Positions 11,650 to 46,909 are shown, counted from the stretch's first letter. The stretch: DNA of 64,000 nt from Thermoplasmatota archaeon (GCA_041601615.1 JBFIHX010000004.1:96001-160000), one strand, 5' to 3'. The notes: generated by a model from the letters alone, not told the origin. Numbers and translations are program-made.

Positions 11650-13344
11650 ATGCGCGTTCTTGGTGCCGTTGCCTTGACGATCCTCGTGTCCTTTGCAGGC
11701 TGCCTTTCGAGCAATTCCACGACTCCCGATTCGGGCGCGGGGATGCAGATTCCGGTAACGGAGGGCGATGCGCAGCAACCGTTTGCGACGTTCCTTTGCA
11801 AGGACGGCTATGTGGCGGCCGGGGGGCTTACTGCTGCCAACTTGGATCGCTGCAACCACCGCGTCACCAAGCCCCTGTTGGATGCGTCCCGCTTGGATGT
11901 CGTCGGCCAGCATGGGCCCGCCAATGAGGTCAGCATTGCCATGAATCCGACAAACATCCTCAATGCGGCGGGCGGCGCGAAGGATTACACGGTCAGCTAC
12001 GTCAGCGACGACGCGGGGTGTGGCGAATTCACCGTCTGGATGGGCACCTATGCTACCTTCGATGGCGGCCTCACTTGGTCCAATGATTTGATGCCTGGAT
12101 TCCCCGGCGACGACCGACCCAGCCCGCTTTCTGGCAATGGCTGCAACACGGACCCGGTTTTGGTGTTCGACGACGACGGTACCTTGTACTACAGCGGCCT
12201 GAATTACCGGGGCGCTCGCGATGACTTATCCACCATCGATTTTCCGGGCACCGAGCACGACGCAGTCACCGGCAGCCAAGTGTACTTTGCCCGCAGCCAG
12301 GACGGCGGTGCCAGCTACGACCGGATTACGTTCACAAGCTTTGGCGACAACGACAACGTGTTCAACGACAAGCAATGGTTTGCGGCCCAGGCTGGCGGCG
12401 ACCACATGATTCTGACGTGGAGCGATTTCATCGGCCCCGGCCCCGTGATTCTGTACTCCGAGAGCCTTGATGCGGGCGCAACTTGGACCCCGCCTCGACC
12501 CATTCCGGGCGCCAACGCGCTCACGGTTTTGGCAGTTCAAGATTCCATGCCGCAGTACTTCACGGGCCCGGCCGGTGAGCAGCGCGTGGCAGCCACTTGG
12601 GTGAGCACGGGGGTTAAAGCAAGCCCCCACAGCGAAGGCCCCGAGTCGGTCATTGCCTACGCGGAGGGCATCGTCACTCCCGCCGGCGTCCAGTGGATTC
12701 CCGCCACAGCCGCATTTTCCTACAACCCGGTCCAATCTGGGCCCGGCCGCGACGGCAGTGGCCCAAGCACCTTCCGCTGGGGCACCATCCCCGTGCTTGC
12801 CGTAGACACCATTGGCGGCGCGTGCGATGGCCGACGCTATGTGGTCTGGGAGGACCAACCTGGGCCCCTGGACTCCGACGTGAACGTACTGCTTCGCTAC
12901 AGCGACGACGGCGTTGCCTGGTCCATGCCCCTGCGCGTCAGCTACACCGGCACCGGCGACCAATTGATGCCGTGGATTGAAACCGACGAGGAAGGCGGCG
13001 TGCACGTTGCCTACTACGACCGCCGCAACGATCCTGACAACCGCCTCCTCGACGTCTACTACGCATACTCCGAGGACTGCGCCGAGACATTCTTGCCAGA
13101 CATTCGAGTCACGGAAGCAAGCTTCGACGGCGACCTGGGCCACCACCAAAACGGCTCGCCCTTCATTGGCGACTACATTGGCATGGACGCCACGAGCGAA
13201 GCGGCGATGATCATCTGGGCCGACACGCGCCACACGGGAAGCCCCGGCCGCGAGGCAGGAAGCGACGTCTACACCGCGACGATTCTGCGGGACCTGGATG
13301 TTCGAGCCCAGTTCGACGCCGTGTTCAGCGAACCTCGGCCGTGA
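11650..13344 (+). CDS. Sialidase-fold (BNR/Asp-box beta-propeller) lipoprotein
   Basis: Lipobox FAGC. Asp-boxes TFDGGLTW, SQDGGASY, SLDAGATW, SDDGVAW. FIGDY motif. Confidence 0.85.
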   Translation: MRVLGAVALTILVSFAGCLSSNSTTPDSGAGMQIPVTEGDAQQPFATFLCKDGYVAAGGLTAANLDRCNHRVTKPLLDASRLDVVGQHGPANEVSIAMNPTNILNAAGGAKDYTVSYVSDDAGCGEFTVWMGTYATFDGGLTWSNDLMPGFPGDDRPSPLSGNGCNTDPVLVFDDDGTLYYSGLNYRGARDDLSTIDFPGTEHDAVTGSQVYFARSQDGGASYDRITFTSFGDNDNVFNDKQWFAAQAGGDHMILTWSDFIGPGPVILYSESLDAGATWTPPRPIPGANALTVLAVQDSMPQYFTGPAGEQRVAATWVSTGVKASPHSEGPESVIAYAEGIVTPAGVQWIPATAAFSYNPVQSGPGRDGSGPSTFRWGTIPVLAVDTIGGACDGRRYVVWEDQPGPLDSDVNVLLRYSDDGVAWSMPLRVSYTGTGDQLMPWIETDEEGGVHVAYYDRRNDPDNRLLDVYYAYSEDCAETFLPDIRVTEASFDGDLGHHQNGSPFIGDYIGMDATSEAAMIIWADTRHTGSPGREAGSDVYTATILRDLDVRAQFDAVFSEPRP

Positions 13345-14311
13345 TGTAGACCCAGCGCGCCGGAAATGAAGCACCGTCAAAAACGCGGTCGGCTGCCATG
13401 CGCAGCACCCGCAACCGATCCGAGACCGCCTCCGGGCTTGGTTCTGTGCCCTCGACCTTGGGGCTGCCACCCATCCAGCCAACGATGCCGTCGTGGTAGA
13501 CACCAAGGAACTCCATCCACTCACCCACATCCACGTCGAACACTTGTTCCCGCGTGGAGATGATCTCGAAGCCGGCAGCAACCAGCGCACTCGTGTAGGT
13601 CTTGAGCGGCCGCACCGGCAGGAAGTAGCGTTTGCGCAGCGCGTCGTGGCTCTCCATGCAAACGGCATCAGACAGCGCCGGTCGGTATGCTGCGAACGAG
13701 TCGTCCTCGGCCACAATTTTTGCCGCTTCGGCCGCAAGCGCGTGCACGGTTTCGTCGATGATCCATTCGCCCGTGTCCGGGTGCTCTGGGGCTATGTTGC
13801 CCGATTGAATCACGGCACGGCCGCCGGGTCGCAGCACGCGGCGCCAGGCACGCAACGTATCGGCAAGGTCGTAGTAGAGGTGGATGGCGTTGGCGCTGAC
13901 GATGGCAGCAACACCTCGAAGCAAGTGCATTCCAACGACTTCGTCCAAGGACTCCAAGCGACGCACCTCGGGTTGGTAGCGAATGAGTCGGAACGCCGTG
14001 CGCGGGTCGTTGCCGTGTTTTTCCAGGTCCAAGCGGAGGAATTTGGCCGAAGCATCCACGTTCAAGATTCCGATGCTGCGGTCGCCCGCGCGCGCCAGGA
14101 GCCTATCGCCGAGCAGGCCGGTGCCGCCGGAGTAGTCCACCACGATGTGGCCGTCGCCAAGAAATTCCAGCACTTCGTCCACCGTAGGGTTGAGGTTGTC
14201 GTACCAACCGTGGCCTCCCAACAAGTCATACCCCCGCGCCAAGTCCGACAACGGCTGCCGAGTCCAGGGGTCATCCTCGATGCGCTCAAAGCCCGCTGGC
14301 CAGACGTTCAT
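13325..14311 (-). CDS. Class I SAM-dependent methyltransferase
   Basis: VVDYSGGTG motif I, SANAIHL, RVLRPGG. Confidence 0.85.
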   Translation of the reverse strand: MNVWPAGFERIEDDPWTRQPLSDLARGYDLLGGHGWYDNLNPTVDEVLEFLGDGHIVVDYSGGTGLLGDRLLARAGDRSIGILNVDASAKFLRLDLEKHGNDPRTAFRLIRYQPEVRRLESLDEVVGMHLLRGVAAIVSANAIHLYYDLADTLRAWRRVLRPGGRAVIQSGNIAPEHPDTGEWIIDETVHALAAEAAKIVAEDDSFAAYRPALSDAVCMESHDALRKRYFLPVRPLKTYTSALVAAGFEIISTREQVFDVDVGEWMEFLGVYHDGIVGWMGGSPKVEGTEPSPEAVSDRLRVLRMAADRVFDGASFPARWVYITAEVR

Positions 14312-14415
14312 AGCGAACCGAAGACGCAGTACCAAATTAGGCCGTTCGATGGTTGCACAGACATCGCCATGGGTGCGAGGCAGGACATCGCGCCTGATTT
14401 GGCGCCGAAATGCTA

Positions 14416-14677
14416 GGCTACGCCCTCGGCAAACCTAGGGTTTTGGCAATCACCACCGTCCCGTGCAAGCACGGGCCGAAGGATTCCTCGGGCTTCGCCC
14501 TAGGCATCGCGAAAACGACTCCCCCTCGCTACGCTCGGGGCAACCCTAGCGTTTTCGCGATCCCCTTCGTCGCCGGACAAGCCGGCACCGAAGGTCCGCT
14601 CGCTGCGCTCGCTGATTACCAAAACCCGTTTCCCTCGGGCTACGCCCTCGGCAAACCTAGGGTTTTGGCAATCACCA
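14416..14677. repeat. 111-bp-period hairpin array containing three copies of the acyl-CoA dehydrogenase 3' end
   Basis: Perfect 40-bp direct repeat 14416-14455 = 14638-14677, plus a synonymously recoded middle copy at 14529-14561. Nested inverted repeats and GCGNAGC mini-hairpins. Confidence 0.9.
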
Positions 14678-15797
14678 TCCTCTGCACTTCCGACGAACCC
14701 TCGCCGATCTCACAGAGCTTGACATCGCGGAACATGCGCTCCACTGGGTAGTCCTTGGTGTAGCCGTTGCCGCCGTGGATCTGAATCGCCTCGGTGGTGG
14801 CCTTCATGCCGACTTCGGAAGCGTAGAGCTTGCCCATGCTAGCTTCTTGCGTGAACGGCTTGCCTTGGTCCTTGAGGACGGCGGCGCGTTGCAGCAGGAG
14901 GCGGGCCGCGTCAATCTGCGTGGCCATGTCGGCGAGTTTGAAGCTGATGGCTTGGTTGGCGGCGATGGGCTTGCCAAATTGCTTGCGCTCCTGGGCGTAG
15001 GCAAGGCTTGCGTCCAGCGCTCCCTGCGCGAGGCCAAGCGCGAGGCTGCCGATGGCGATGCGGCCAGCGTCGAGGGTCTTCATGGTGCCGACGAAGCCCT
15101 GTCCAATGCCGGCGTCGCCGCCAATGACGCGGTCGTCTGCCAGCCACAGGTCTTCAAAGTAGAGTTGGCTCGTGATGCTGCCGCGCATGCCAAGTTTGTC
15201 TTCCTTGTTGCCCATGTTGAGGCCTTTCTCGCCCTTCTCGCCAATGAACGCCGTGATGCCGTGCGCGCCCTTGGAGGGGTCCGTCTTGGCCATGATGGTG
15301 AAAGTGTCCGCGATGTGGCCGTTGGTGATGAATTGCTTCTGGCCATTGATGAGCCAGCCGTCGCCCTCGCGCACCGCCTTGGTTTCGAGGCCCGCCGCGT
15401 CGCTGCCCGCGCTCGGCTCTGTCAGGCACCAGGCACCGATTTTCTTGCCCTGCGCCATGTCCGGGATGTATTTTTGGACCTGCTCGGGCGTGCCTTGGCC
15501 GTAAATGTGGCTGATGCCGAGGCCGTTGTGGGCGGCGAGGCTCAAACTGAGGCTGCCACTGACGCGAGCAATCTCCTCGATGGCAATATTGTAGCTCACG
15601 GTATCGAGGCCGCTGCCGCCGTGCTCGGGCGCGACCGTCATGCCCATGAGGCCCATGGCGGACATCTCGGGGACCATTTCGGCGGGCCACCAATCCTCGG
15701 CATCCATCTTGGCTGCGATGGGGCCAACGCGGCTCTCGGCGAACTCACGCATGGTCTGGCGGATGAGCTCTTGCTCCGGCGTCGGTTGGAAGTCCAT
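14640..15797 (-). CDS. Acyl-CoA dehydrogenase
   Basis: [46 protein letters not shown]. Confidence 0.95.
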
Positions 15798-46493: not shown

Positions 46494-46562
46494 GCCTCCC
46501 GACCAAACCGCTCAAATATCGGGCCTTACTCGGCCGAATCCGCCCCTGATGGGGAATCGCAC

Positions 46563-46633
46563 GCGAGGATAGTGTAGTGGTATCACGGTGCCTTGCCAAG
46601 GCACCAACTCGGGTTCAAATCCCGGTCCCCGCA
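46563..46633 (+). tRNA. tRNA-Gly(GCC), copy 1
   Basis: Cloverleaf with anticodon arm GTGCC-TTGCCAA-GGCAC and T-loop TTCAAAT. No encoded CCA. Confidence 0.95.
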
Positions 46634-46667
46634 TTTTCATTTTCAACCGCAATTTCGGAGTCACCAC

Positions 46668-46738
46668 GCGAGGATAGTGTAGTGGTATCACGGTGCCTTG
46701 CCAAGGCACCAACTCGGGTTCAAATCCCGGTCCCCGCA
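46668..46738 (+). tRNA. tRNA-Gly(GCC), copy 2
   Basis: Identical to copy 1 at a 105-bp period. Confidence 0.95.
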
Positions 46739-46909
46739 TCTCCTTTTCCCTTCTTTGCTTGTTTCTTGATTTTTGTCTTGGACTGCGACAGGTTCGCCCC
46801 CGAACGCTCTTATGCCGCTTCGGGTGGCGTCGGACCTGTCCCGGACGCTTGGACCTCTTTGCGCCCGAATTCACCTTGGCTTCTGGTCTCGGTTCTCCCG
46901 GTTTTCCTC

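Follow-up and report, generated by a model that had tools for sequence, protein, structure and literature searches.

Tandem gene-end copies with hairpin spacers behind an archaeal acyl-CoA dehydrogenase gene, and related stop-codon-associated repeats in one Thermoplasmatota family

The window considered here is the whole stretch of 64,000 nucleotides (nt) given as contig C4:96001-160000 of G000, a metagenome-assembled genome (MAG) of a Thermoplasmatota archaeon (2.79 Mb in 30 contigs, 62% GC, 93% complete). On its minus strand an acyl-CoA dehydrogenase (ACAD) gene, identified by Pfam matches to Acyl-CoA_dh_N, Acyl-CoA_dh_M and Acyl-CoA_dh_1 (E 2e-52 to 2e-25), runs into an array in which the end of the gene is encoded three times in all, the copies being separated by hairpin-forming spacers. 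The array sits between two co-directional genes, the ACAD gene and a weakly methyltransferase-like one. With middling confidence, we read it as a two-unit tandem array of 'gene-end cassettes' that results from a small mobile hairpin element at stop codons combined with turnover of the array. As far as can be found, the feature is one member of a widespread and apparently undescribed class of small repeat element. The parts of the locus are, in the direction of transcription:

14640..15797, minus strand: ACAD gene, 385 amino acids (aa), from the list of open reading frames (ORFs)
14638..14677, minus strand: gene-end copy X1, translated (last 11 codons, TAG and 2 nt), copy one of a 40-nt perfect repeat
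14613..14639, minus strand: imperfect inverted X1, which by folding forms a long hairpin with X1, the stop codon lying in its GTA loop
14598..14612, minus strand: hp1, the GCGAGCGCAGCGAGC mini-hairpin with a GNA loop and tandem G.A
14564..14594, minus strand: hp2, a long hairpin by folding, CCTTCG...CGAAGG with a CTTG-loop tip
14529..14561, minus strand: gene-end copy X2, silent, with the same 10-residue peptide and 7 synonymous nt changes
14503..14528, minus strand: inverted X2, which matches X2 and not X1
14486..14505, minus strand: hp1', GCCTAGGGCGAAGCCCGAGG, 90% like the hairpin at the end of X1 (14486-14506 against 14633-14653), with GTAG changed to GAAG
14455..14482, minus strand: hp2', CCTTCGG plus a CTTG-loop hairpin plus ACGG
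14416..14455, minus strand: gene-end copy X1', silent, an exact 40-nt copy with its stop at 14418-14420, followed by unique DNA
13328..14335, minus strand: next gene, weakly methyltransferase-like (Methyltransf_12 27.1 bits, cut-off 30; Methyltransf_11 22.6 bits, cut-off 21.2)

A first-pass annotation of the window had described three gene-end copies at 111-nt spacing, a synonymous middle copy and an exact 40-nt repeat, and our reading of the minus strand agrees on each count. The ACAD gene ends with ATT GCC AAA ACC CTA GGT TTG CCG AGG GCG TAG; the TAG triplets of the three copies (14640-14642, 14529-14531 and 14418-14420) are spaced 111 + 111 nt, and the perfect repeat (14638-14677 = 14416-14455) joins the first copy with the third. 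The middle copy, ATC GCG AAA ACG CTA GGG TTG CCC CGA GCG TAG, is changed at 7 nt in six codons, all of them synonymously and including AGG to CGA. The inverted arms (14613-14627 with 14660-14674 and 14503-14517 with 14550-14564; 15 nt and 93% complementary in each case) fit each its own version of the gene end, as had been claimed. The two spacers are homologous to each other, and the layout originally proposed for them stands as to the parts that they share and needed revision in two points: CCTTCGG is no hairpin of its own but pairs, as a 5' arm, with the 3' arm ACGAAGG in a long hairpin that has the CTTG-loop hairpin for its tip, and the 'GCGNAGC hairpin' is the 15-nt motif GCGAGCGNAGCGAGC, which has a GNA loop and contains two G.A mismatches. 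The 111-nt unit is composed of X (the last codons with the stop), an inverted X, the GCGAGCGNAGCGAGC mini-hairpin and the long CCTTCG...CGAAGG hairpin; the gene end itself takes this same mini-hairpin form, CCGAGGGC-GTA-GCCCGAGG, with the stop codon in the loop. Single-strand folds of the two units reach -36.1 and -33.3 kcal/mol (z -7.4 and -4.3, equalled by 0 of 200 shuffles), the gene-sense strand folding better than the antisense (z -3.5 and -3.3). An Rfam search of 13800-15200 returned no family at its gathering threshold, the best match being RtT with 19.3 bits against 45 (E 0.9).

The architecture proved to be common in the G000 genome. For every stop-to-stop ORF of 120 aa or more we asked whether 8 consecutive residues among the last 15 recur exactly, in translation, no more than 450 nt downstream. 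Such a re-encoded tail was found behind 28 of 10,682 ORFs as compared with 0 in the antisense control and 2, 0, 2, 0 and 0 in five permuted controls, so the recurrence of tails is not due to chance. A looser tail scan flagged 69 ORFs, from which we removed the tail common to the L10/L12 stalk proteins (C3:224285), Arg/Pro-rich ORFs of low complexity, repeats internal to genes and duplicated tRNAs, and 30 curated loci were kept after reading of the alignments. At these loci a stretch of 25-199 nt running through the stop codon recurs 63-271 nt downstream, and the insert between the copies is hairpin-rich, non-coding and about 45-120 nt long (up to 182). Arrays of three or more units (3-4) are present at several of them. 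The earlier suggestion of a tiny non-coding element that is tied to gene ends and accumulates in tandem is therefore well founded. Its insertion inside the last codons is not: the elements lie in sense orientation at the stop codon or a few nt from it, and the point of insertion is at or just after the stop.

The affected genes are mostly core genes, and 27 of the 30 encode Pfam domains of such genes. They cover translation and RNA (aRF1, EF-2, ribosomal proteins S7 and L24e, RtcB, class I and class II aminoacyl-tRNA synthetases), DNA (PolB, PolII DP2, topoisomerase VI-A, ThyX), central metabolism (phosphoglucomutase, GAPDH, PGK, PGI, a transketolase-like E1 beta, a dihydrolipoamide-dehydrogenase-like protein, three acyl-CoA dehydrogenases, ETF-alpha and an arginase-family protein) and other functions (H+-pyrophosphatase (PPase), NifU, glutaredoxin, thermosome). 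In addition, 13 of the 60 contig ends of G000 fall in short-period direct repeats (e.g. both ends of C9, the start of C10 and the ends of C14, C18 and C22), and those that were read are of this kind or similar. Since contigs break within such repeats, near-identical arrays probably interrupt the assembly and are under-counted.

The copies diverge in the manner of coding sequence. Over 528 codons at the 30 loci, 31, 16 and 109 nt differ at codon positions 1, 2 and 3, respectively (109 of 156 at the third), which corresponds to 100 synonymous versus 36 non-synonymous codon differences (binomial p = 2e-20 against equal positions). The identity of copy pairs ranges from 100% down to 71%, and the most diverged pairs are nearly purely synonymous (synonymous to non-synonymous 13:0 at C5:82484, 14:1 at C5:112936 and 12:1 at C3:47086), the diverged pairs including Ser TCC/AGC and Arg CGC/AGG switches. 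At the other extreme, the coding part is identical in 8 of the 30 pairs, and many others are 92-98% identical. Differences are somewhat commoner far from the stop codon (42/35/36/19/24 over five bins of the repeat). The expressed and downstream copies often differ in their stop codon; we do not claim that the element supplies the stop codon, as at C2:181980 the TGA of the relatives shows that it was the downstream copy that changed. A faster AT-biased mutation of the expressed copy was also considered and dropped (65 versus 48 sites over all pairs, p = 0.13, not significant). As a separate observation, in low-divergence pairs, a post-hoc grouping only, the translated copy has A/T where the silent copy has G/C at ~30 sites as compared with 5 for the reverse.

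Comparison of the inserts revealed recurring hairpin cores. Family A has a 54-nt core (GGGTGG, a mini-hairpin, GCCGCCC AAAA and a T-rich-loop hairpin ending GAAGGTCG), of which 17 copies at E < 1e-5 were found at 12 loci of G000, with further copies in the related genome G002. These cores stand in sense orientation right after a stop codon or beside a tRNA gene, and where a downstream copy exists, it begins directly at their 3' end. Family A shows duplications of up to 85 nt with no inverted copy, and at two loci beyond the curated 30 the direct repeats measure only ~12-18 nt. In the 197 genomes of the class, a family A 18-mer occurs only in G000 (6 matches) and G002 (2), and a 25-mer from the window core (up to 2 mismatches) occurs in nine, all of them from the family f1 (G000 and 8 of the 31 other f1 genomes, with 0 of the 165 remaining genomes); the reversed-pattern control gave 0. 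Nine loci matching the window core were read in six other genomes. Five of them have the layout X, inverted X, hp1, hp2, X: one in G046 (gene end ...NILSRRS), one each in G018 and G014 (three units of ...FDKPENVY) and two in G021, one by a tRNA gene. The other four (two in G009, one in G014 and one in G011) show no clear duplication. Covariation is seen as well: in ten cores from six genomes, 7 of the 13 consensus pairs of hp1 and hp2 are compensatory (the inner hp1 pair, for example, is G-C in five sequences and A-U in four), although these counts do not represent independent events because the ten cores are related. Metagenome scans gave 0 matches to the window 25-mer and at least 120 stretches matching the family A 18-mer; the full element was present in none of 80 such loci examined, and these 18-mer matches are accordingly attributed to chance.

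The same hairpin cores flank duplicated stretches at tRNA genes (G000 C2:114747-115102 and C14:35615-35768, and a locus in G021); one of these cases consists of three 109-nt units just upstream of the tRNA gene, with the element antisense to the tRNA. At G000 C5:116251-116540 a tRNA-like gene is duplicated in tandem (122 nt) and contains a CAAGGGGCGCTGCCCCTTGG hairpin, perhaps an intron or else an element that inserted there.

Orthologs of the ACAD gene were found in 34 of 41 related genomes, and units of the array recur in some of them. The two units are shared by G002 (97% protein identity) up to the point where its contig ends, and G001 has one unit without the inverted arm plus a decayed copy, VLAKTRGLPRAQ. 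A probable decayed copy is present in G023, and no array was found in 15 other orthologs that could be judged, one further ortholog being unjudgeable. The middle copy of G002 is recoded again and specifies a peptide of the same length (ATC GCG AAA ACC CTC GGA CTT CCG AGG TCG TAG). Between G000 and G002 the body of the gene is 88.3% identical (differences 13/3/89 by codon position). Unit 1, at about 95% (119/125), exceeds this value, which together with the compensatory pairs speaks for selection on the structure, and the loop part of the middle copy with its arm is only about 55-60% identical.

Elsewhere in the genome, empty sites document presence and absence between species: both G001 and G002 lack the element behind GAPDH and behind the second ACAD (C7), and G002 lacks it behind the arginase-family gene, the end of which was not found in G001. 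At PolB the element is common to G002 and G000, while the duplicated stretch is 78 nt in the former versus 48 nt in the latter, and so the duplication must have been made more than once. A decayed element follows the last copy at the PolB and PPase loci. For the PPase gene and C2:181980, where both species carry the element, the copies are alike within each species and different between species (Ser TCG/AGC; V to F and A to P in both G002 copies), i.e. at some loci the copies evolve in concert. Wherever it could be judged, the downstream copy resembles the gene ends of element-free relatives (LGA before the stop at the C7 ACAD, RILEA before the stop at C3:47086, GAC ACC at the arginase-family gene), and it retains the native downstream DNA.

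At the transketolase-like gene, C3:47086, the architecture is present in 9 of the 14 family genomes that hold the gene (G000 included), with differing inserts, and absent from G014, G018, G011 and G004; the contig of G001 stops 26 nt past the stop codon. Presence is patchy even within genus g4, where G005 and G021 have different elements and G014 and G018 none. In G000 the expressed version, alpha (ending RILAA), fits the inverted arm of the element, and the downstream version, beta (ending RILEA), is like the gene ends of G014 and G018, which have no element. The arm in G002 fits alpha, yet both copies there are beta. In genus g11, G012 carries the units a (...QKVLAA and stop), b (...QRVMSA and stop), c and b again, and G020 carries b, a and c, the unit inserts being ~90-93% identical between the two (a count by eye). 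As the order of the units differs, the unit joined to the gene is not the same one in the two species, which means that silent copies become the expressed end.

Overall, the repeats are stop-codon-associated hairpins restricted to one Thermoplasmatota family, with a long and variable duplication of the gene end around them, tandem arrays, presence or absence by species, a conserved structure, copies that diverge as coding DNA does and at some loci evolve in concert, and one locus at which the expressed unit has changed. The last 12 to ~200 nt of the gene recur beyond the element, the old end and the native DNA having been pushed downstream; as the gene end is present on the far side of the element, the gene stays intact. 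Our preferred scheme is that the hairpin element lands at a stop codon and duplicates the gene end, the duplication probably arising when the element is installed. Arrays would grow by repeated installation or by duplication of units. Recombination between units reshuffles arrays and changes the copy that is fused to the gene, as seen in genus g11, and has presumably done so at the ACAD locus too. Unit turnover together with gene conversion would keep the silent copies coding and their differences largely synonymous. The sense-strand hairpins, conserved and covarying, point to an element that works when folded as a single strand, be it as the 3' end of an mRNA or as DNA.

Two of the original proposals survive in part under this scheme. 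That a silent copy can be a formerly translated end is supported by the swapped units of genus g11; as for the recoded ACAD middle copy itself, an earlier expressed unit, an imported unit or an adjustment to its own hairpin are all candidate sources. It may be, for example, that both lineages expressed the middle unit as their gene end before the recent arrival of unit 1, which would fit the higher likeness of unit 1 between G000 and G002. That the element supplies a recoded replacement end agrees with the arm-fitting version at C3:47086, but not with the 8 of 30 pairs that lack any coding difference, and copies can evolve in concert.

Several observations weigh against a mobile element with array turnover. 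The 30 loci were selected partly by eye, and some cores (four family A loci) follow stop codons with little or no duplication. Profile searches of the 93%-complete G000 genome found no RVT_1, Y1_Tnp, TnpB Zn-ribbon or Cas1 (DDE transposases and homing nucleases were not searched), only three tyrosine recombinase (Phage_integrase) hits were obtained, on C16, C13 and C8 and none on C4, and no free or excised form was seen. Turnover is demonstrated at one gene in one genus, which is not the ACAD gene. Between G000 and G002, ~9 of 22 nt of the middle copy are different, and yet both versions encode the peptide; strong synonymous divergence combined with lasting coding integrity of a silent copy does not easily follow from simple population genetics, and a diverged yet coding middle copy is compatible with turnover only if the unit was expressed until recently or was imported. 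Finally, the identity of the first and third copies around a diverged middle one is not what a simple 'youngest next to the gene' stratigraphy predicts.

A bolder version, which we put forward tentatively as a possibility on the less probable side, is that these repeats constitute a new class of selfish element: a hairpin module of ~50-110 nt whose homing targets are stop codons of conserved core genes, where it either delivers or generates a spare end together with its antisense copy. This would allow harmless entry into essential genes, spread between species by recombination through the duplicated ends, and arrays of interchangeable recoded cassettes, the installation being performed by an enzyme or by repair templated by folded DNA or RNA, without any protein encoded by the element. 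In that event the repeat would break the expectations that small non-coding elements avoid coding DNA and that untranslated coding copies decay; essential genes (those for the release factor, EF-2, both replicative polymerases, RtcB and the thermosome) would carry arrays of readable spare ends; and the arrays would constitute a natural system for silent DNA kept under protein-level selection. They would further show stable GNA-loop hairpins driving duplication and recombination, and may show a parasite residing in essential genes without an intein or intron mechanism. In practical terms, such arrays break assemblies, create false 'small ORFs' and could mislead the annotation of gene ends in archaeal MAGs.

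The literature, consulted at the level of abstracts, yielded no account of a small non-coding element, archaeal or bacterial, by which gene ends are duplicated, in keeping with the initial remark that no described element known to its author matches this one exactly. The closest in form are the repetitive extragenic palindromic (REP) sequences with BIMEs and the miniature inverted-repeat transposable elements, or MITEs, which are likewise short, non-coding, hairpin-forming, dispersed, placed behind genes, often tandem and confined to lineages. Unlike the present repeats, they either do not duplicate their target or do so over a short, constant length, make no 12-200-nt copies of coding ends and are tied to RAYT/Y1 or DDE transposases. 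By reading, the ends of our elements (GGGTGG...GAAGGTCG in family A, GCGAGCG...CGAAGGGG in the window type) are not the terminal inverted repeats of a MITE, and duplications of 25-199 nt at the 30 loci, or ~12-18 nt at the two others, are not of a short fixed length. REP/REPIN sequences with RAYT and IS200/IS605-derived PATEs were set aside as well, Y1 (PF01797) and the TnpB Zn-ribbon (PF07282) being unmatched in G000 whereas the Y1 control genomes respond. A SINE-like (short interspersed) retroposon would fit the variable length of the duplication, but the reverse transcriptase PF00078 is unmatched in G000 while the controls respond. A CRISPR array is not supported, as the two 'spacers' are homologous to each other, not unrelated, and no Cas1 was found in G000.

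Some integrative elements with tyrosine integrases enter tRNA or protein genes at the 3' end, for which their attP holds a substitute. They resemble the present case in that a second copy of the end keeps the gene intact and tandem insertions lead to att-like arrays; they differ in being kilobases long, with an integrase of their own and one fixed att core, as opposed to short inserts at ~30 genes with varied duplications. A site-specific integrative element was rejected here on the grounds that the inserts are non-coding, the recombinase hits lie on other contigs and the duplicated sequences are specific to each gene. In Allomyces atp6, a mobile organelle insertion reportedly brings a foreign C-terminal coding part and leaves the native one downstream. 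The shared features are an expressed end, an insert, a displaced native end, mostly synonymous differences and conserved targets, but inserts of that type encode a homing endonuclease and rely on break repair at one site, in contrast to short hairpin inserts without a nuclease gene. The displaced orphan C-terminal modules behind contact-dependent inhibition (CDI)/Rhs toxin genes and the silent cassettes of pilS/pilE are also known for silent downstream 3' copies that can recombine into an expressed gene; those systems diversify the protein, whereas the copies in the hairpin arrays encode the same or nearly the same peptide behind housekeeping genes. The DUP-TRP/INV-DUP rearrangements and quasipalindrome template switching likewise give direct-inverted-direct layouts around hairpin-prone DNA and need no transposase; such rearrangements are sporadic, as distinct from a dispersed family with a conserved core at stop codons.

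The attC sites of integrons are folded single-strand recombination sites, a point of similarity, and attC-like sites of G000 hold the GCGAGCGNAGCGAGC mini-hairpin at their centre. By reading, the ends of the window's hairpins are devoid of ...AAC/GTT... boxes, and the units flank gene-end copies rather than cassettes, so the integron reading was abandoned. The attC-like sites as such (ctaac...gttag, with one or two GCGAGCGNAGCGAGC each) were noted on C25 at ~3.4-7.0 kb, C21 at 0.9-6.6 kb, C16 at 2.9-5.3 kb and C1 at 1.9-2.9 kb, and at C5:16705, C4:186274 and C2:251457. A strong tyrosine recombinase hit, C16:16605-17162, lies on the same contig as the attC-like sites at ~2.9-5.3 kb.

Among the rival explanations, the one that survives best, although on balance we find it somewhat improbable, is the import of gene ends, a homing-like form of what the first-pass annotation had proposed: a unit would travel between related species by recombination at conserved genes, the donor end being expressed and the resident end displaced, and the synonymous differences would reflect the divergence of donor and recipient. 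Inteins and homing elements favour conserved core genes, and the targets here are of that kind. The alpha and beta versions at C3:47086 in G000 and the mismatch between arm and copies in G002 are as expected from import, as are the patchy presence in genus g4 and the elevated identity of ACAD unit 1 between G000 and G002 relative to the gene body. On the other hand, the curated pairs with identical or 92-98% identical coding parts indicate that it was the end of the host itself that was copied, and both G021 copies bear the genus-specific residues VKIVAEVERIL. The same core at 12 unrelated loci calls for insertion at new targets in addition to homologous spread, copies evolve in concert within species, pairs at 71-77% identity would be poor substrates for homologous recombination, and no nuclease is known (nuclease families were not searched).

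The second alternative, which we regard as unlikely, dispenses with a dedicated mobile element. Stable hairpins at gene ends would stall replication or repair, and template switching would make the X...X and the inverted X, occasionally copying a hairpin block from elsewhere. The sequence X, inverted X, X is indeed direct, inverted, direct, with the inverted part covering the same stretch as the duplicated X. The lengths of the duplications (~12-199 nt), re-made with another length at one locus, the lack of a transposase-like gene among the families searched (RVT_1, Y1_Tnp, TnpB Zn-ribbon, Cas1) and the 13 of 60 contig ends in short-period repeats, as expected of unstable arrays, point in the same direction. 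What template switching accounts for is the direct-inverted-direct layout; it does not explain the dispersed conserved cores. The 54-nt core is highly similar at 12 loci, has a fixed 3' end that adjoins the downstream copy and is always found in sense behind a stop codon or beside a tRNA gene, family A makes its duplications of up to 85 nt without any inverted copy, and the compensatory evolution of the hairpins fits selection on structure.

Direct use of the downstream copies, in which the mRNA would lose the element along with one copy, or ribosomes would skip or read through them, so that all copies are translated and selected as protein, appears very improbable. In its favour, silent copies keep the peptide and the stop at the same place across species, and by reading there is no stop between the in-frame copies of the C7 ACAD, nor, over 37 codons, between the first TAG and the middle-copy TAG of the G002 ACAD array. 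In G000, by contrast, a TAA occurs 8 codons past the first stop; 13 of 35 periods are multiples of three, which equals the chance expectation; no bulge-helix-bulge motif could be drawn at equivalent points of two copies; and some downstream copies are decayed (e.g. VLAKTRGLPRAQ of G001, or unit c of G012, which is without a stop). Readings as a bulge-helix-bulge intron, a C/D-box small RNA or CRISPR were dropped after inspection by eye.

The doubt that the array might be an assembly chimera was addressed with contigs (k=31) of four DNA metagenome runs from one study, mapped to the region. A 242-nt unitig (14426-14667) with zero differences is present in three of the four runs; it contains the middle copy with both spacers and reaches 30 nt into the 40-nt repeat at either end, so the middle copy is not an allele of the gene end from another strain. 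How many 222-nt blocks there are is unreadable from these contigs, since the 40-nt repeat exceeds k=31, and the contig of one run that goes back by 222 nt is a graph cycle through this repeat that proves neither a circle nor a longer array. An artefact mixing two strain alleles of the ACAD gene end, conceivable for a MAG whose copy number the contigs do not fix, is thus left with a negligible chance, given that the middle copy has spacer and not the gene or its downstream DNA on both sides in one unitig from three runs and that the architecture is also found in the assemblies of two other species for ACAD, at ~30 other loci and in other genera.

With respect to the neighbouring sequences, the Methyltransf_11 match of the gene at 13328..14335 reaches a total just over the cut-off without any single stretch passing it. 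On the plus strand, opposite the start of the ACAD gene, an ORF at 15893-16792 matches the Pfam Collagen repeats (E 1e-14) and represents either a real Gly-X-Y protein or an effect of composition. At 46560-46747 of the window one tRNA gene is present in two tandem copies with a 105-nt period, an ordinary duplication that lies outside the finding described above.

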